Positions 2,385-28,274 of a stretch of DNA of 47,281 nt are shown piece by piece; within the stretch, counting starts at the first letter, position 1; every line of letters starts with the position of its first letter. A program made the position numbers and the translations under genes. The notes below the pieces were generated by a model. That model worked only from the letters and a program-made list of their open reading frames with translations, ran no database searches and was not told the origin of the DNA. This DNA is from a virus (lineage: Duplodnaviria > Caudoviricetes), in IMG/VR virus record IMGVR_UViG_3300010234_000017, positions 1-47,281 of that record; one strand, written 5' to 3'.

Positions 2385-2612
2385 TTAGAACTTGATTGTA
2401 ATTTCATCACCCTCATAGATGGGGTAAGTTGTATCTGATATATAGAAGGATGATTCATGTACAGGATTTACACTACTCCAAACATTTGTCTTACCATCTG
2501 GTAAGATATACATAGATAGCATCTCAGTGTGGTCACTGTTTAGGATAAGGTTACCTTCATGCACCCACCCAATAAACTTATTATCAGGTGATCTTCTAGA
2601 TGTAATTTTCAT
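2385..2612 (-). CDS. Hypothetical protein
   Basis: 75-aa ORF with AGGA RBS, tight packing. Confidence 0.65.
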   Translation of the reverse strand: MKITSRRSPDNKFIGWVHEGNLILNSDHTEMLSMYILPDGKTNVWSSVNPVHESSFYISDTTYPIYEGDEITIKF

Positions 2613-2693
2613 TTTTATAGTCCTATTAGTTTAAAAAATATTGCAATTAATGGAAGTAACTGGCCATAATAAGTAATCATCTCAATAAGGGTC

Positions 2694-2888
2694 TCAGACA
2701 TTAGTGCCCTTGTAATAAAGCCTGAATGTCTCTATTTTCCCACAATGTTTACACTTAGAAGGCTGTACTTTTGTAGGTACGTTTGGTTCATCGTCAAAAA
2801 GAGTAATAGCATCTCTTTCTTTGCCATAAGGTTCCCATTCACATAAATGCCAATCACCGGTAAATAAAAATTTAATTATTCTTAACAT
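2694..2888 (-). CDS. Small Zn-ribbon-like protein
   Basis: HLCEW...CKHCGK; GGAGG RBS. Confidence 0.7.
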   Translation of the reverse strand: MLRIIKFLFTGDWHLCEWEPYGKERDAITLFDDEPNVPTKVQPSKCKHCGKIETFRLYYKGTNV

Positions 2889-2933
2889 TAGTCACCTCCA
2901 TACCTCTTGTCCATTTTAAAGGGGGTACATTAA

Positions 2934-2980
2934 GCGCTAGTGTCATGATAGGAACAATCTACTATGAAATACACTAACGC
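2934..2980 (-). promoter_or_regulatory. Long imperfect hairpin, possible RNase III processing site
   Basis: Minus strand GCGTTAGTGT...CATAGTAGA-TTGTT-CCTATCATG-ACACTAGCGC, intergenic. Confidence 0.45.
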
Positions 2981-2999
2981 CTCTGTACGGTTAATTTAA

Positions 3000-3086
3000 T
3001 CACTGGTCCCAAACTACCCAACATATAAAGGCAAGGTTTAGTGATATATAGAAGAATAGTTCAGGGATTGTGACTGAGAAATCCAT
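3000..3086 (-). CDS. 28-aa membrane peptide MDFSVTIPELFFYISLNLAFICWVVWDQ
   Basis: Read by hand; AGGA RBS; single TM helix. Confidence 0.55.
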   Translation of the reverse strand: MDFSVTIPELFFYISLNLAFICWVVWDQ

Positions 3087-3097
3087 TATTTCCTAAA

Positions 3098-3175
3098 TTA
3101 TATTAATAGAAACTGCACGGCAAAACCAATAACAGCTCCTATTAAAAATAATGTCCAACTAAATTCTTGTTCCAT
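3098..3175 (-). CDS. 25-aa membrane peptide MEQEFSWTLFLIGAVIGFAVQFLLI
   Basis: 3' part of track ORF 3098..3283; AAGGGA RBS before ATG at 3175. Confidence 0.55.
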   Translation of the reverse strand: MEQEFSWTLFLIGAVIGFAVQFLLI

Positions 3176-3179
3176 ATTA

Positions 3180-3299
3180 TTATTTCCCTTGTTTTTTAGC
3201 CAGGGCTGCAAGTAGTGCAACGGCAATAGGCTTACTGTTATTAGCCTGTTTTGTGTTGTGCTGTTTGGTTGCATGTGCTGCAAGTTCTTGAGTATTCAT
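3180..3299 (-). CDS. 39-aa peptide MNTQELAAHATKQHNTKQANNSKPIAVALLAALAKKQGK
   Basis: Read by hand; AAAGGA RBS; tightly packed with neighbours. Confidence 0.6.
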   Translation of the reverse strand: MNTQELAAHATKQHNTKQANNSKPIAVALLAALAKKQGK

Positions 3300-3327
3300 A
3301 GTAATATTCCTTTGTTAAATTGTTGAT

Positions 3328-3489
3328 TTATTTAAGGGTTTCAATACAAGTCTCATTAGAAAAAAGACTTCTGCATTTTTCATAAGACTCTTCATTGGAG
3401 ATTGTAACACTAATTAAAGATACCCATGCGATAAACATAATTACAAACATAGGTGTGATAGGAACAAATTCTGATAATCTATTAAACAT
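3328..3489 (-). CDS. 53-aa membrane protein with a C-terminal Cys pair
   Basis: MFNRLSEFVPITPMFVIMFIAWVSLISVTISNEESYEKCRSLFSNETCIETLK, read by hand. Confidence 0.55.
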   Translation of the reverse strand: MFNRLSEFVPITPMFVIMFIAWVSLISVTISNEESYEKCRSLFSNETCIETLK

Positions 3490-3518
3490 TTATAGAGCCT
3501 TTACATTTTGTGTTTGTG

Positions 3519-3710
3519 CTAAATTGACTCACTAGTTCTATACAATGAGCCATTTGCTGCTAATAGCACATCATGCCCATATTCAGAGCAATCAACCAAG
3601 TAGCGATTCACAGTATCAAGATAAAGAAAGCCTTTAGTTTTAACACCCCGTGTTACCTAAAGTCTATAAGCTTCTTTAGCTTTGATGATGGACTTTTGTC
3701 TATCAGTCAT
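3519..3710 (-). pseudogene. Paralogue of 4977..5171 interrupted by an in-frame TAG
   Basis: MTDRQKSIIKAKEAYRL*VTRGVKTKGF...NRYLVDC...GHDVLL...GSLY aligns end to end with MTNRQQAIIKAKEAYRLWITKAVKVKGF...NRYLFNC...GYDVLL...GSLW; TAG at 3657-3659 replaces TGG. Confidence 0.75.
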
Positions 3711-3838
3711 AATATTAATCCTTTTTTCAATACATTGCTTACACTGTAAACACCCGCTAGGGATATTTTTGTACAAATAGAAGGTGTTGCCACATTTTGA
3801 GTTACAACACACAACTATTTTTTCAGTGCCCATATTAT

Positions 3839-4411
3839 TTAGTGATCTTCAGGTTGAGCCACTGGTGCTTCAGACAAGAAACCACTAGATTGCAAAGACT
3901 TTGTGAGCTTTTCAACATCTTTAGTGTCGAAATCTTTGGCTTTACCGTCTTCAATGGCTTTATTTGCCTGAGTTAGCAGCGATTGAATGCGAGAATTAAG
4001 GTCAAACATACGAGTATTCTCGATGACCAGATCAAAGAAAGAGACTTCAAAGTGTTGTTCGCCCTTTGAGTTAGGTACGATTTCACGTTTTGTACCTTTT
4101 ACGTGACGGATTTCTTTTTCTTTTTCATCATAGCGTAGTGAGTTTGAGAATGATAGGAGCCATTTATAGAATGCAGTTGCACAACCTTTTGTATAAGCTG
4201 ATGCAATAGTATCATGAATAGCCTTGGCATTCGACATGTCACCAGTTTCAACATAATGAAGCAAGAAACCATTGACCAGTGCAATAGTATCAGATTTCAG
4301 AGTGTTGCCACGACGGGCAATTGAACCAATCATTTTAGTTTGGGTTGCAGTGTTAACACTTTTGAAAGTGTTTGTGTTAATTTTAGCTGCTTTATTTGAT
4401 TTATTAGTCAT
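3839..4411 (-). CDS. Early phage protein of unknown function (190 aa)
   Basis: Good RBS (GAAAGG); IGSIARRG..LK...LLHYVETGD...FYKW pattern resembles early proteins I recall from other podoviruses. Confidence 0.8.
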   Translation of the reverse strand: MTNKSNKAAKINTNTFKSVNTATQTKMIGSIARRGNTLKSDTIALVNGFLLHYVETGDMSNAKAIHDTIASAYTKGCATAFYKWLLSFSNSLRYDEKEKEIRHVKGTKREIVPNSKGEQHFEVSFFDLVIENTRMFDLNSRIQSLLTQANKAIEDGKAKDFDTKDVEKLTKSLQSSGFLSEAPVAQPEDH

Positions 4412-4437
4412 AATATTAACCTTTCAAGTTATAGTTT

Positions 4438-4957
4438 ATGGTATTTGCACCAATAACCCCATGCTTATTTACATGAGGTTAAAATTGCAAATCCATGCCA
4501 AGGTTTTCACCGTATTATATAACCTAATTCATACATGATTAAATTATATCGTCAATTGGTCTTATTTATTAAGGTGCAAGCCATACAGGCATCAAATCCT
4601 TAGTACCTATATCAATCTACATTTAAGCTTTTTGATATCAATACATTTATGTTGTCACCGCCAATTGTGTACCATGTGCCCCAACTCTGGGTAGTTCTCA
4701 TTGTGAGTGAATAGAATAAGGGTTGATAAGCCTTAAGCATTCAAACAAGTTCTATATTAATCTTTGCCTATCGCTGATTATCCGTGCATGATAGGAATAG
4801 AACTCACCTCAAAATTAAATTATAGCGTTCGGGGTTCAACAGTGGCACGAGTGCCAAAGCATCTTATTATAACATCCATACTTACTATAACCGCTCATAA
4901 GAGGGTTTTCCAGAATAATTACTGGCATATATACACCGTATATCATTGATGTATATA
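4438..4957 (-). ncRNA. Candidate large structured non-coding RNA or structured leader
   Basis: About 13 helices tile the interval, several needing G-U pairs that exist only on the minus strand; no credible ORF. Confidence 0.6.
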
Positions 4958-4976
4958 AGTCAACAATTATTTTTCT

Positions 4977-5171
4977 TTATATCTGATTTCGGTCTACTGC
5001 TTCCCATAATGAACCACAATCATTTAATAAAACATCATAGCCGTTATCACAATTAAACAAGTATCTATTTTCGTTACTAGGTACAATGAAACCTTTTACT
5101 TTAACGGCTTTTGTTATCCAAAGTCTATAAGCCTCTTTAGCTTTAATGATGGCTTGTTGTCTATTAGTCAT
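4977..5171 (-). CDS. First early gene, 64-aa hypothetical protein
   Basis: AAGGA RBS, immediately after a sigma70 promoter; has a paralogue at 3519..3710. Confidence 0.8.
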   Translation of the reverse strand: MTNRQQAIIKAKEAYRLWITKAVKVKGFIVPSNENRYLFNCDNGYDVLLNDCGSLWEAVDRNQI

Positions 5172-5200
5172 AAGGTCAATCCTTGTTTGTTTCTAGATAT

Positions 5201-5229
5201 ACATTACCAAAAGAATATAAGAAATGCAA
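5201..5229 (-). promoter_or_regulatory. Leftward early sigma70-type promoter
   Basis: TTGCAT (5229-5224), 17 bp, TAATGT (5206-5201) with extended TG. Confidence 0.65.
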
Positions 5230-5262
5230 GTAACATAATGTAACAGAATGTAACATAATGTG
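5230..5262. repeat. Three tandem 10-bp repeats GTAACA(T/G)AAT
   Basis: GTAACATAAT GTAACAGAAT GTAACATAAT GTG directly upstream of the leftward -35. Confidence 0.8.
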
Positions 5263-5444
5263 ATCTATCTATAGGTAGATGATATCAAATGAATGCATAC
5301 GTTATACATTGATCAAATCAATTGTATTCAATAGGATAGGTCAATTAAATGGTATTAACCCATTTTAAGTTAATTAATGTAATACTATTACATAGAACCA
5401 AAAAGTATCATAATAATCTTAGTGATCAATGAATCATTAGTATA

Positions 5445-5460
5445 CATATGATATCATATG
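5445..5460. promoter_or_regulatory. Perfect 16-bp palindrome CATATGATATCATATG (operator-like)
   Basis: Self-complementary; second copy with 15/16 match at 5691-5706. Confidence 0.6.
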
Positions 5461-5488
5461 GGGCTAGGGGTACAAAGGGGGGTACGGG
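5460..5488 (+). other. G-rich tract matching the canonical G-quadruplex pattern; candidate genome-end signal
   Basis: GGGG-CTA-GGGG-TACAAA-GGGGGG-TAC-GGG in an otherwise very AT-rich intergenic region between divergent promoters. Confidence 0.55.
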
Positions 5489-5585
5489 TGTCCCACGAGG
5501 AGTTGTACTGACCCTCATTATTTTCTCATAAAAATTACTCATTTTACTTTTTTTGAATTATTTTGAATTATTTTGCATTTTTTAC

Positions 5586-5614
5586 TTGACATTCATTTAG
5601 AAACATGGTATAAT
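5586..5614 (+). promoter_or_regulatory. Rightward consensus sigma70 promoter with UP-like T tracts
   Basis: TTGACA (5586-5591), 17 bp, TATAAT (5609-5614) with extended TG; TTTTGAATTA repeats upstream. Confidence 0.85.
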
Positions 5615-5710
5615 ATACTTAGGAAGCATAGAAAAGTAATTGAAAGGTTTTTCTAAAACTGATTAGGGTTACTGAGTATACAATGTATTTCATATGATAT
5701 CATAAGATAG

Positions 5711-5784
5711 ATTGGTATAGTGTAATGGTAGCACGTCAGTCTCCAAAACTGAAAGTGGTGGTTCAAGTCCATCTACCTTTGCCA
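5711..5784 (+). tRNA. tRNA-Trp(CCA)
   Basis: TCAGT-CTCCAAA-ACTGA anticodon arm, GGTGG-TTCAAGT-CCATC T arm, G73 plus CCA; two U-U mismatches in the acceptor stem. Confidence 0.85.
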
Positions 5785-5791
5785 AATTAAT

Positions 5792-5868
5792 GCTGGAATA
5801 GCTCCAATTGGAAGAGCAACTGTTTTGTACTCAGAGGGTTGTAGGTTCGAGTCCTGCTTCCAGCACCA
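5792..5868 (+). tRNA. tRNA-Thr(TGT)
   Basis: GCTGGAA/TTCCAGC acceptor stem, GGTTCGAGTCC T arm, CCA; anticodon arm ACTGT-TTTGTAC-TCAGA has mismatches. Confidence 0.85.
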
Positions 5869-5980
5869 TCACTAAGTTTGTAGCTAACGGTACAGGCTCT
5901 ATAGAGGTTTTATTGATTGTACCAGTGTATACAAAACAATCAATCATTATTTATAAAAATAAAGTAAACGGAGATTACTT

Positions 5981-6121
5981 ATGCCTAAAACTAGAGTTAA
6001 AACAAAATCAGCAAATATGAGAAAAAAACCTATGACACGATCTGAAATGCTGAAAAACAAAGATCGTATAGCTGCTGCTAAAAAGAAAAAGAATACAAGG
6101 CCTGCTACTAAAAAGAGGTAA
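5981..6121 (+). CDS. 46-aa very basic peptide, possible nucleic-acid-binding protein
   Basis: MPKTRVKTKSANMRKKPMTRSEMLKNKDRIAAAKKKKNTRPATKKR; GGAG RBS; below ORF-track cutoff. Confidence 0.65.
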   Translation: MPKTRVKTKSANMRKKPMTRSEMLKNKDRIAAAKKKKNTRPATKKR

Positions 6122-6130
6122 GGAACCCTC

Positions 6131-6634
6131 ATGGATAAATTTAAAAACCAAATGGGAGTATATTACACCAAAGCTTTATTTCTTGAGACATCAGTCACTA
6201 AAGGTATGGAACTATTTACTTTCAAATACAAAGACATTAAGGTGGGCGACAAAACATTTATTTCTTTCCCTAAGAGATTTATCGACCTCAGGGACCCTAC
6301 TGGTTACCTCATCTCCCAAGACCTCTTAGATGGCTACCAACATTGGAAAAGACTAGAAGAGTGTACTTGGTTTGCAGAAGAGCTAGATAAATGGAAAGAA
6401 GAGCTAGAGGTCTTATTAAAGGCAGAGGCTCTCTCCAGAATCAGAGAAGAAGCAGTAGAGGGTAAGAACTCTTATTCAGCTAACAAACTTCTCCTTGAAG
6501 GTGGTTGGATTCCCAAAGAGAAAAGAAAAGACTCAGTTGGCCGCCCATCTAAAGAAAAGATTAAGAAAGAAGCAGAACAACTATTTTCTAATAAGTCAGA
6601 AGTTGATGCAGATTTAAAAAGATTAATTAATTAA
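6131..6634 (+). CDS. Putative terminase small subunit
   Basis: Position at start of the packaging module; helical 167 aa with C-terminal GRPSK motif. Confidence 0.65.
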   Translation: MDKFKNQMGVYYTKALFLETSVTKGMELFTFKYKDIKVGDKTFISFPKRFIDLRDPTGYLISQDLLDGYQHWKRLEECTWFAEELDKWKEELEVLLKAEALSRIREEAVEGKNSYSANKLLLEGGWIPKEKRKDSVGRPSKEKIKKEAEQLFSNKSEVDADLKRLIN

Positions 6635-6645
6635 AGGGTTATAAA

Positions 6646-8673
6646 TTGCCAAAACTAAATTTAGACGATGTAGCAAATATCTCAGGTGCAGAGTCAACAG
6701 CACTCTCTACAATCAATACAAACTCAGATAGAATTGAAACTGCCCTAGAAAATACATTATCTAGAGATGGCACCACTCCTAATACTATGTCTGCTGATTT
6801 TGACATGAATGGGAATGATATTCTTAATATTGGTAGTCTTGGTTTCTCAGGTGGTGACACCATACAAGACCTAGCTGATCAAGCAGCAGCAAGTGCATTA
6901 GCAGCAGCTTCTTCTGAAGCAGAGGCAGAAACAGCAGAGGCAAACGCAGTGGCCGCGGCAGCAATAGCACTAGGCTTAATTGATATTACTTCTGCTGATA
7001 CAAGAACAGCCCTCAAGGCAATAGACACAACAGAGACTACTACAGCCTACCTTAAAGAAGAAGGGCGTGAGGGTATTTTTCTTTACCGAACAGGTGATTT
7101 CTCAACACTAGTTGCAGCAGATACAGAAGAAGGATGTTACCTAGCTGCTGATGGTATAGCTACTACAACTGGTGCATGGGTAAGGCAACACAATGCTGTT
7201 ATAAACGCAAAACATTTCGGCGCAGAACCATCCAATACAGCAGCAGAGAATACTACAGCTCTTCAGGCATGGATAGATATGCTAACACATTTACCGGGTA
7301 TGGGATTTCTCCCTAACGGTACTTACCAATTTGATACTAAGCTATCGATGCTATCTGGAAGTACAGGTATTTATGGTGAAGGGCAAGGTTCTATTCTACA
7401 GTATGTAGGTACAGACCTAACTTCAGATGTATTAGAGATTTCTTCAGGTACAGATATTTCTTTTGTTACTATTAAAGATTTATCTATTTATGGCGTAGGA
7501 AGTGCCACAGATGGTGCAAACCTAAAGATCAATAGAAGTACAAGTGTTAAGGTAGAGAATATTTATATGACTTCCGGGCACGATGGTATTGTTACTGACA
7601 ACGCTCACGTATATGATATCAGACATGTACTTATTACTAACCTACAGAATAACGGTGTAGGTGTTACTATTCAAGGTGATGGCTCGGCTTCAGCGTCCCT
7701 AGAGAATTATCTCTACAGGATTTTTATTCAAGGTGACTCTACTAGATCATCAGCCCCTAGACATGGTTTCTTGGTCGAAGATAACCAAGCGCTCTTAATG
7801 GAGTGGTGTACTGCCCTTTATTGTGAAGATGGCCTTACAGTTAACCCAGACAACGCACAAAACAAAGTGGAGCATATTTTTGTTACTTCTTGTCTAATGG
7901 ATTTGAATCATAACATTGGTGCAAACTTCCTTACAGGAATAGGAGAAACAAACCGAAGAATCCTTATTAATGGTTCATGGTTCGCATCGTCAGGTGCGGC
8001 AGGCCTTGTATTCGATGGAGCTTCAGCTGACGGTATTAGTGTTATAGGTTGTCAGATGGTTGCTAATGGTACACAAGGTATCTGGGCTAAGACAGTAGGT
8101 GATATTAATATTATTGGTAACTTAGTAGCAGGTAACTCAGGGTTATCAGCCTCTACATATGCAGGTATTGAGATTGGTACTTCTGGCGGTGGTTCTGGTA
8201 ATGGTATTGTTATTACTGGTAATAGGTGTGGACCTGCGGGTGGTTTTGCTACAGTACAGAAATATGGTATCTTCTTAAATGCCACAGCTACAGATAACGT
8301 AGTTATTTCTTCTAATGACTGTAGAGGTAATGCCACAGCAGGTATTCAAAATGATGCTACAGGCGGTACGATACAAATCTTTGGTAACCTGCCTATTGGT
8401 GGTATTACAGATGGTTATTATGGTTCTGCAACATGGGACCCTGTCTCAATTGGGAACAACACATCTACAGCAACAACAGTGGGTGTAACAGGCGCTTCAA
8501 TCGGTGATCCAGTTTCAGTAGGATTTACTTCTATTACAGCAGGTAATATTTTCCTGAATGGTCATGTTACTTCTAACTCAACAGTTACTGTATCTCTTTA
8601 TAATGCATCAGGAGGAACACTTGATTTAGCAAGTGGTACACTAAAGGTTCTGGTACACAAAACAGGAAACTAA
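6646..8673 (+). CDS. Tailspike / right-handed beta-helix depolymerase
   Basis: N-terminal virion anchor (IETALENTLSRDGTTPN), INAKHFGA...NTTALQAWID...PNGTY pectate-lyase-like start, G/N/I-rich beta-helix repeats; TTG start. Confidence 0.85.
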   Translation: MPKLNLDDVANISGAESTALSTINTNSDRIETALENTLSRDGTTPNTMSADFDMNGNDILNIGSLGFSGGDTIQDLADQAAASALAAASSEAEAETAEANAVAAAAIALGLIDITSADTRTALKAIDTTETTTAYLKEEGREGIFLYRTGDFSTLVAADTEEGCYLAADGIATTTGAWVRQHNAVINAKHFGAEPSNTAAENTTALQAWIDMLTHLPGMGFLPNGTYQFDTKLSMLSGSTGIYGEGQGSILQYVGTDLTSDVLEISSGTDISFVTIKDLSIYGVGSATDGANLKINRSTSVKVENIYMTSGHDGIVTDNAHVYDIRHVLITNLQNNGVGVTIQGDGSASASLENYLYRIFIQGDSTRSSAPRHGFLVEDNQALLMEWCTALYCEDGLTVNPDNAQNKVEHIFVTSCLMDLNHNIGANFLTGIGETNRRILINGSWFASSGAAGLVFDGASADGISVIGCQMVANGTQGIWAKTVGDINIIGNLVAGNSGLSASTYAGIEIGTSGGGSGNGIVITGNRCGPAGGFATVQKYGIFLNATATDNVVISSNDCRGNATAGIQNDATGGTIQIFGNLPIGGITDGYYGSATWDPVSIGNNTSTATTVGVTGASIGDPVSVGFTSITAGNIFLNGHVTSNSTVTVSLYNASGGTLDLASGTLKVLVHKTGN

Positions 8674-27994: not shown

Positions 27995-28010
27995 TAACTA
28001 AATAGTAGAC

Positions 28011-28054
28011 AAAAAGAAACCCCTGAAGTTCACATGGAGCTTCAGGGGTTTTCT
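28011..28054. terminator. Bidirectional rho-independent terminator between convergent arms
   Basis: AAAAAG-AAACCCCTGAAGTTC-ACATG-GAGCTTCAGGGGTTT-TCT. Confidence 0.9.
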
Positions 28055-28058
28055 GTAT

Positions 28059-28274
28059 CTACTCATAGTCTTCTAATAATACCTCTAGCATATGGATAGC
28101 TTTTTTAATATCTTCTTTGCCGCCCTTCTTCCTGTGCCTAGATACATACTTAATTACATTACCTTCTACAAAGGGTATGTTATTAGCAATACAGTATTCT
28201 AGGGGTTGGATAGCCATATCTTTGTAATGACCACCACCTATTTGAATATCAAGTGGCTTTTTTGGGTTGCTCAA
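28059..28274 (-). CDS. DUF3310 (T7 gp1.7 nucleotide-kinase-like) protein
   Basis: QIGGGHY...IQPLEY...EGNVIKYVSRH..KGG.EDIKKA; probable TTG start at 28274 after AGGAG. Confidence 0.85.
   Translation of the reverse strand: MSNPKKPLDIQIGGGHYKDMAIQPLEYCIANNIPFVEGNVIKYVSRHRKKGGKEDIKKAIHMLEVLLEDYE

Follow-up and report, generated by a model that had tools for sequence, protein, structure and literature searches.

The early region of phage T7 combines host σ70 promoters (A1–A3) near the genome end, an untranslated leader and the RNase III sites R0.3 and R1.1. RNAs of the CsrA/Rsm sponge type carry many GGA motifs in hairpin loops. Substrates of E. coli RNase III are described as spanning about two helical turns, with internal loops tolerated (PMC1540722), and the put RNA of phage HK022 as about 70 nt long, with two stems and a triplex (PMC9378689). 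In the account of ROOL and GOLLD given in PMC12286853, these RNAs are defined by extensive covariation and a pseudoknot network, and the account in PMC10383478 locates phage lncRNAs near tRNA genes. For the Zobellviridae, the lack of an RNA polymerase of their own is stated in the description of Klebsiella phage Klyazma (PMC9960094).

We analyzed a window that is the whole virus record, 47,281 bases, in which an earlier note had proposed a large structured non-coding RNA of ∼520 nt at 4438–4957, read from the minus strand. Our analysis bears out a non-coding, constrained and structured leader on that strand, but not one globally folded RNA of ∼520 nt. The leader is probably a real, uncatalogued and functional RNA; a single giant ornate ncRNA is unproven. 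As we read it, the closest functional parallel would be the early leader of T7 and its RNase III site. Shared with T7 are a predicted σ70 promoter, an untranslated leader and, just ahead of the first large early gene, a stem of two turns interrupted by an internal loop. It differs from the T7 case in being 517 nt long with branched domains, in lacking a boxA, in belonging to a phage without an RNA polymerase, and in that its cleavage is predicted only. Like put, it would be a structured RNA made directly downstream of an early promoter for the host polymerase, and no antiterminator protein was identified, but put, known here by description only, is ∼70 nt long against 517 nt. With ROOL and GOLLD it has in common a long ORF-free phage RNA, a size of comparable order and tRNA genes in the genome; in contrast, it has no Rfam match, one covarying hairpin visible in one relative and a core folding at z −0.3, and instead of lying in a tRNA island it is separated from tRNA genes by a gene and about 750 nt, on the opposite strand. 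On the tests possible, it is a member of neither ROOL nor GOLLD nor any Rfam family.

A predicted untranslated leader in the early region

The proteins of the window include terminase, portal, capsid, DNA polymerase, primase-helicase and an amidoligase cluster, and no RNA polymerase gene was found in the 32 ORFs scanned. The terminase shares 50–64% identity with its counterparts in cobaviruses, ICP2 and PA11, and records of this type belong by classification, in those opened, to the Zobellviridae. Judged by its gene content, the window is that of a Zobellviridae-like podophage. Structural genes occupy the plus strand from 6131 on, and small early-type genes the minus strand below 5171. Since the family is without an RNA polymerase, and since in Klyazma the positional equivalent of the leader starts within the 711-bp terminal repeat, the interval can reasonably be placed in the earliest-transcribed region. 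The features around it are as follows.

3839–4411, minus strand: 190-aa early protein (phrog_1448; family match E 1e-11)
4395–4424, minus strand: ribosome-binding and start region, repeat family D2, with copies before three early ORFs
4412–4928, minus strand: predicted 517-nt untranslated leader RNA, suggested by the promoter match, its length and a divergence lower than that of third codon positions
4928–4957, no strand assigned: 10-bp inverted repeat over the promoter spacer and −10 box, from the repeat scan and the fold
4935–4963, minus strand: candidate σ70-type promoter (−35 at 4963–4958, 17-nt spacer, −10 at 4940–4935; 8/12 consensus bases)
4965–4980, minus strand: A/T-rich tract where an UP element would lie, sharing 15/16 bases with the tract upstream of the VPp1-group early promoter (E 1.7, weak)
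4977–5171, minus strand: 64-aa early ORF upstream of the promoter, with a third-codon-position substitution pattern
5201–5229, minus strand: weak upstream promoter candidate (6/12 consensus bases plus TG), read by eye and absent from both scans

The promoter match at 4963–4935 puts the predicted +1 near 4928, and therefore gives a leader of 517 nt up to the start codon at 4411. The pattern TTGACW-17-TANNNT occurs four times genome-wide, three of them in intergenic gaps and pointing into genes; this number is not enriched over chance (2.2 ± 1.8, with 17 of 100 shuffles reaching four), and the 4963–4935 match scores under the threshold of a separate promoter scan. The RNA had been thought to be driven by an early promoter at 5229, but the one at 4963 is the likelier candidate (8/12 versus 6/12 consensus bases). 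Directly upstream of the 5229 candidate lies a 10-nt tandem repeat in three copies (D4, 5228–5263). Because the hairpin 4928–4937/4948–4957 overlaps the promoter spacer and −10 box, it is probably outside the main transcript, and would either form only in read-through RNA or be a DNA operator. Changes in a related strain within 4928–4957 fall in its loop or lengthen its stem.

The 190-aa protein belongs to a set of 28 proteins at E ≤ 0.001, counting itself, with homologues in eight Vibrio phage records, and an atlas search returned viral clusters without names as its sole matches. The ribosome-binding and start repeat recurs at 3694–3723, 4395–4424 and 5155–5184. The 64-aa ORF, which is a real gene by its substitution pattern, has zero matches in phage records. 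A 139-nt direct repeat with 73% identity (3589–3727 and 5050–5188) contains a second copy of the start of this ORF, with an in-frame stop 17 codons in.

The leader is ORF-free and constrained in one related strain

The claim that the interval contains no credible ORF stands: only frames of 20–61 aa lie inside it, plus an 88-aa plus-strand frame over its left end, and the four longest frames had no match in Pfam. The accompanying remark that the genome has almost no intergenic space does not, as other gaps exist, for example 5172–5807. A scan for ribosome-binding sites carries little weight here because it also missed the site of the 190-aa gene itself.

Public contigs mapped to 3400–6200, from four of the six listed runs, yielded one related strain (run X2), whose contigs may stem from different strains. 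One of them, over 4787–5206, has 39 substitutions, 37 among those listed. In the 64-aa ORF, 15 of 22 substitutions are at third codon positions, which is 15 of 65 such positions (23%). Of the 142 positions in the leader part of this contig (4787–4928), 9 are listed as changed and no more than 11 can be. A second contig, over 4129–4771, has 29 substitutions, so that the leader share is at worst 29/360 (4412–4771), or 8%. Measured against the 23% third-position divergence, both leader parts are significantly more conserved (Fisher p 0.0009–0.003 for 4787–4928, and 0.001 for 4412–4771), while against all positions of the neighboring ORF the difference is not significant (p 0.13–0.35). As far as this one relative goes, these counts demonstrate constraint on the leader relative to third codon positions.

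Such conservation would also arise if the region encoded unrecognized small proteins, for example in the 42-aa frame at 4612–4740 on the minus strand. The stretch 4416–4771 is indel-free in the relative, and the 42-aa frame may thus be intact, but the 36-aa and 61-aa frames are shifted there by 1-nt deletions at 4909 and 4914, Pfam gave no match, and the divergence of the leader is far under the third-position rate expected for a gene. We consider a coding explanation very improbable.

It is also conceivable that, at the RNA level, nothing counts beyond the promoter, the 3′ stem and some local hairpins. The remainder would be a spacer under DNA-level constraint (from genome entry, a replication origin or protein-binding sites), and the apparent tiling would be chance pairing in A/U-rich sequence. 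The non-coding DNA at 5223–5722 is conserved to a similar degree (27 changes in about 500), and for that reason the constraint could act on DNA. We think this explanation unlikely.

Local hairpins are favored over a global fold

Complementary segments do occur where the earlier note had placed them, with 13 of 14 two-armed helices pairing throughout when G–U pairs are counted. The helix given as 4889–4896/4901–4907 does pair, but in another register (4889–4892/4904–4907 plus 4894–4896/4901–4903). It had also been stated that the mismatches of four helices become G–U pairs on the minus strand only, and this holds for 4928/4948, 4744/4797, 4517/4538 and 4454/4472; the statement covers all wobbles in correctly registered helices. 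The predicted elements of the leader, from its 5′ end, are these.

4910–4925, minus strand: 4-bp hairpin, which excludes the 7-bp helix closing 5′ to 3′ end (4928–4922/4501–4495); either can dominate
4889–4907, minus strand: bulged hairpin (pairing probability 0.90–0.99), with no substitution in the relative among those listed
4843–4856, minus strand: 5-bp tetraloop hairpin, maintained by compensatory change
4694–4808, minus strand: central branched domain (probabilities 0.5–0.96; z about −1.2, not significant)
4553–4667, minus strand: multiloop closed by 4667–4661/4559–4553 (probabilities 0.65–0.98; z −1.55)
4517–4549, minus strand: 12-bp A/U-rich hairpin (probability about 0.94–0.99; z −2.5 on the minus strand, −0.6 on the plus strand)
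4438–4496, minus strand: RNase III-type stem of 11 bp, a 4 × 4 internal loop and 11 bp, with no U-tract after it

The central domain consists of the helices 4805–4797/4755–4747, 4795–4790/4772–4767, 4735–4731/4721–4717 and 4707–4704/4700–4697; a further hairpin that had been listed, 4680–4683/4688–4691, has a pairing probability of 0.02.

Compared with shuffles, the whole interval folds at z −2.15 on the minus strand, a value equalled by 4 of 100 shuffles, and at −2.44 on the plus strand (1 of 100). The signal is uneven, and most of it comes from the 3′ stem at 4438–4496 (z −6.3). Without this stem, the core (4500–4928) has a z-score of −0.3, with 18 of 40 shuffles folding equally well. Perfect helices of at least 5 bp within a span of 120 nt number 28, against 30.7 ± 6.3 in 60 shuffles. 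Tiling of the interval by helices beyond chance is not confirmed, and given how uneven the z-scores are, thermodynamics proves a strong 3′ stem and not a giant fold.

The core energy, the helix counts at shuffle level, the similarly conserved neighboring DNA and the likeness of the plus- and minus-strand z-scores all speak for a DNA-constrained spacer. Against it, the compensated hairpin sits inside the core and has a wobble that works on the minus strand only, both deletions in the relative hit unpaired positions (4914 being in the loop of the 4910–4925 hairpin), and the share of bases in confident pairs is 0.30 as opposed to 0.19 ± 0.10 in shuffles, a weak signal, with 4 of 25 shuffles as high.

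The compensated hairpin (4843–4856) accumulates 8 substitutions within 12 nt in the relative. At the pairs 4846/4853 and 4847/4852 both sides changed and pairing is retained, the pair 4845/4854 turns into a G–U pair on the minus strand only, and the loop or the flanks of the stem hold the remaining changes. All three pairs would survive by chance with a probability of about 0.07, and the covariation is probably one exchange event, in one contig. In single-sequence folds this hairpin has a probability of only 0.05–0.33. Covariation is thus seen for one hairpin in a single relative.

Pairing between the two ends of the domain (ATGCCA with TGGCAT), which would close it as a whole, is possible, but depends on the assumed 3′ end and on the relative. 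The predicted RNA starts with the same six bases that had been proposed for this helix. The helix is present in the unconstrained MFE structure for 3′ ends at 4436 and 4494 (central pairs 0.95–0.98), falls to a probability of 0.12 with the 3′ end at 4484, and is absent with the 3′ end at 4405. In the relative, a change at 4926 breaks a G–C pair of the helix unless 4497 compensates.

This closing helix is central to a second reading of the leader, in which RNase III would free a discrete and stable RNA of ∼430 nt (4928–4495) whose ends are paired. During early infection this RNA would work in trans: it could lure away a host protein that binds RNA, be it one of defence or of regulation, or it could form an RNA-only scaffold comparable to ROOL and GOLLD. 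The predicted +1 being the first base of the 7-bp helix to 4501–4495, the presence of that helix in the MFE for ends at 4436 and 4494, and constraint along the whole length are as such an RNA would have them. The loss of closure with other 3′ ends, the broken pair at 4926 and the core z-score of −0.3 weigh against it, as does the lack of an Rfam match, of repeats, of a GGA excess and of adjacent tRNA genes. Two further points in its favor come from related phages (see below), and we rate it, on balance, as doubtful though worth keeping in view. The earlier suggestion of an anti-defence decoy or RNP scaffold found no backing, as we detected no repeat arrays, no CRISPR-repeat match and GGA at about the number expected by chance (5 motifs in 493 nt, compared with about 6 from composition), a count that also sets the leader apart from the CsrA/Rsm sponges.

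A strong 3′ stem resembles an RNase III site

The 3′ stem at 4438–4496 (0 of 200 shuffles as stable) ranks among the six most stable 60-nt folds of the genome and stops 26 nt short of the start codon of the 190-aa gene. It has T7-type RNase III geometry, with about two turns and an internal loop. Because E. coli substrates share these properties, we infer cleavage of the stem, and its geometry makes it a probable RNase III cutting site. It does not resemble an intrinsic terminator, the sequence after it being A-rich, and zero minus-strand terminators were found in 2400–6200.

Our preferred reading, to which we give about an even chance, is that the main early operon begins with this RNA as a structured 5′ untranslated leader, which acts in cis and is cut at this RNase III-type stem. 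Host σ70 polymerase would start at about 4928, as the promoter match suggests. The leader would then fold into a series of local hairpins together with two branched domains; one hairpin is backed by compensatory change, and the rest is predicted. As happens with T7 early mRNA, the 3′ stem would be cut by host RNase III, which would free the leader and leave the mRNA with a defined 5′ end. The likeliest job of the core would be to keep the host polymerase transcribing the long early operon without termination. It might do so by hiding the RNA from Rho, being folded and richer in G than in C (19.3% versus 15.5%), and/or by modifying the polymerase in the manner of put, replacing the boxA signals of relatives in this slot. 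This cis role of the core in polymerase read-through is the weakest step of the scheme. The position of the leader between the promoter match and the first large early gene supports the cis-acting reading, as do the constraint, the covarying minus-strand hairpin, the 3′ stem and the structured leaders of relatives (see below); counting against it are a promoter with only 8/12 consensus bases, a promoter pattern that is not enriched, a core that folds at shuffle level, covariation limited to one hairpin in one contig and the similar conservation of non-coding DNA nearby, and we found no terminator on the minus strand in 2400–6200 for the leader to override.

In podophages without their own RNA polymerase, the host polymerase must transcribe a long early operon before any phage proteins exist. 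If the scheme holds, a conserved boxA-free RNA leader with this function, or else a released RNA that targets the host, would amount to a means of takeover that needs no protein.

The leader has no match in RNA families or phage records

Among Rfam 15 covariance models, no family reached its gathering score in the window apart from three tRNAs. At E ≤ 10 there were four hits (E 0.9–7.9), with 11–20 bits against gathering thresholds of 75–160. The classes covered include tmRNA, RNase P, introns, ribozymes, ROOL, GOLLD, OLE and riboswitches, and none of them gives a credible match. The three tRNAs (Arg, Trp and Thr, with zero suppressors) are at 5711–5868 on the plus strand and 1874–1950 on the minus strand.

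No homologue was found by blastn with 601 nt against 50,697 phage records. Searches with the 190-aa protein and its alignment in viral, metagenome and genome contigs confirmed none of the pattern matches (0/5, 0/55, 0/184 and 0/145), and DNA patterns matched viral contigs (8, 87, 21 and 2 matches) and metagenomes (71) without any match being homologous beyond the seed by nhmmer or blastn. A single-sequence covariance model of this stretch of the window, run on 40 and 9 sources, gave best non-self E-values of 1.4 and 0.36. There were no RNA datasets among the sequencing runs listed as carrying the region. In the literature searched, no such leader turned up for Zobellviridae; supplementary catalogues of predicted phage RNAs could list one. 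Because the RNA of the window is a near-singleton with thin structural proof, its value by itself is limited.

Related phages carry different structured leaders in the same slot

The VPp1 group of Vibrio phages also encodes homologues of the 190-aa protein, in genes that belong to the first of the early region and follow σ70 promoters and an ORF-free leader. Across eight relatives, in a set that includes one autographivirus (Micant) and an L029 stretch that may contain a short ORF, the stretches from promoter to first ORF are 205–882 nt long and have whole-leader z-scores of −1.9 to −8.3; in five of the eight, the 100 nt directly preceding the first ORF fold at z ≤ −2.5. A boxA is found in or before the leader in L028–L031, VpJYP1 and G1. 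The rrn-type boxA leaders of VR7901, Klyazma, Asterion and VpJYP1 are like the leader of the window in their slot, in being structured, in length (200–900 nt) and often in having a 3′ stem before the first ORF; they differ from it in showing no sequence or model similarity, and the window has no boxA within two mismatches in 4400–5700.

The leader type of the Klebsiella phages is ∼430–490 nt long and starts at the boxA (L029:4848–5339 on the minus strand, L030, L031, L231 and L232), with VR7901, Klyazma, Asterion and IMG/VR contigs as carriers. In the consensus of five such leaders, 16 of 139 pairs show compensation, for the most part within local hairpins that have been exchanged whole; the closing helix is invariant and uses the boxA in a predicted pairing with the far end (alignment columns 29–35 with 456–462). 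These leaders carry no RNA annotation in the two records opened. That an unrelated leader of similar size also has a closed domain as its consensus fold is one of the points in favor of a trans-acting RNA mentioned above; the other is that whole leaders have been swapped among close Vibrio phages (367 nt in VPp1, 517 nt in IME234).

In IME234 (L010:1250–1766), leader and first ORF are swapped as a block relative to the VPp1 group. A VPp1-type promoter region is followed there by a different 517-nt leader (z about −2.0 to −2.4), which has a possible CCCCC/GGGGG pseudoknot, is unique in sequence among phage records and shows no sequence kinship to the leader of the window. A likeness to this equally long leader was considered and rejected, with a local score of 30 compared with 31.8 ± 4.5 in 200 shuffles.

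Since these relatives have differing structured leaders, the slot appears to carry exchangeable structured RNAs, which raises the prior for a functional leader in the window and says nothing direct on its fold. Going further, the early slot of Zobellviridae might be an exchangeable cassette of folded RNAs of ∼370–520 nt freed by RNase III, with the ∼430-nt RNA of the window acting in trans, a proposal that we regard as rather unlikely to prove right. If it did, the cassette RNA would be a defence decoy or a polymerase modifier, and would represent an early RNA class of lytic phages that is in no database. As cultured VPp1, IME234 and Klyazma carry different RNAs in the slot, swaps and deletions are feasible.

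Other elements in the relatives and in the window

The early leader of VPp1 contains an H-type pseudoknot of ∼75 nt with a hairpin (L004:2598–2675), which is common to the VPp1 group and Autographiviridae and is also present in L002, L003, L005, L009, L006 (G1), L007 (Rambam) and L008 (Micant). In this module 97% of cells are paired and 11 of 19 pairs changed on both sides, with 0 of 500 shuffles as high. It has no match in Rfam, and its topology is reminiscent, as we take it, of SAM-II-type pseudoknots; the idea that it is a put RNA was not confirmed. It is a new RNA motif that is better supported than the leader of the window, where neither a profile HMM nor a model (whose third helix is mis-registered) matched it within the interval. 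A separate case is phage T4S1-k141_502596 (L227:850–1360, minus strand), whose early leader of 502 nt folds at z −8.3; phage records contain one partial homologue of it.

Within the window, a palindromic sequence of 14–16 nt occurs in two copies (D16/I17, at 5445–5460 and 5689–5704) on either side of the divergent promoter region, possibly as operator or packaging sites. A G-rich tract at 5460–5505, C-rich on the minus strand, has similar tracts, by eye, in the same gap of ICP2, PA11, L017, L019 and L227, and is probably a marker of the region of the genome end. A 675-aa ORF (6646–8673) with only weak family matches separates the 167-aa gene from that of the terminase large subunit; genes for tail fibres or lyases are found near this position in relatives. 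A highly stable hairpin at 28001–28060 (z −7.3), at the convergence of the two gene blocks, is probably a bidirectional terminator.
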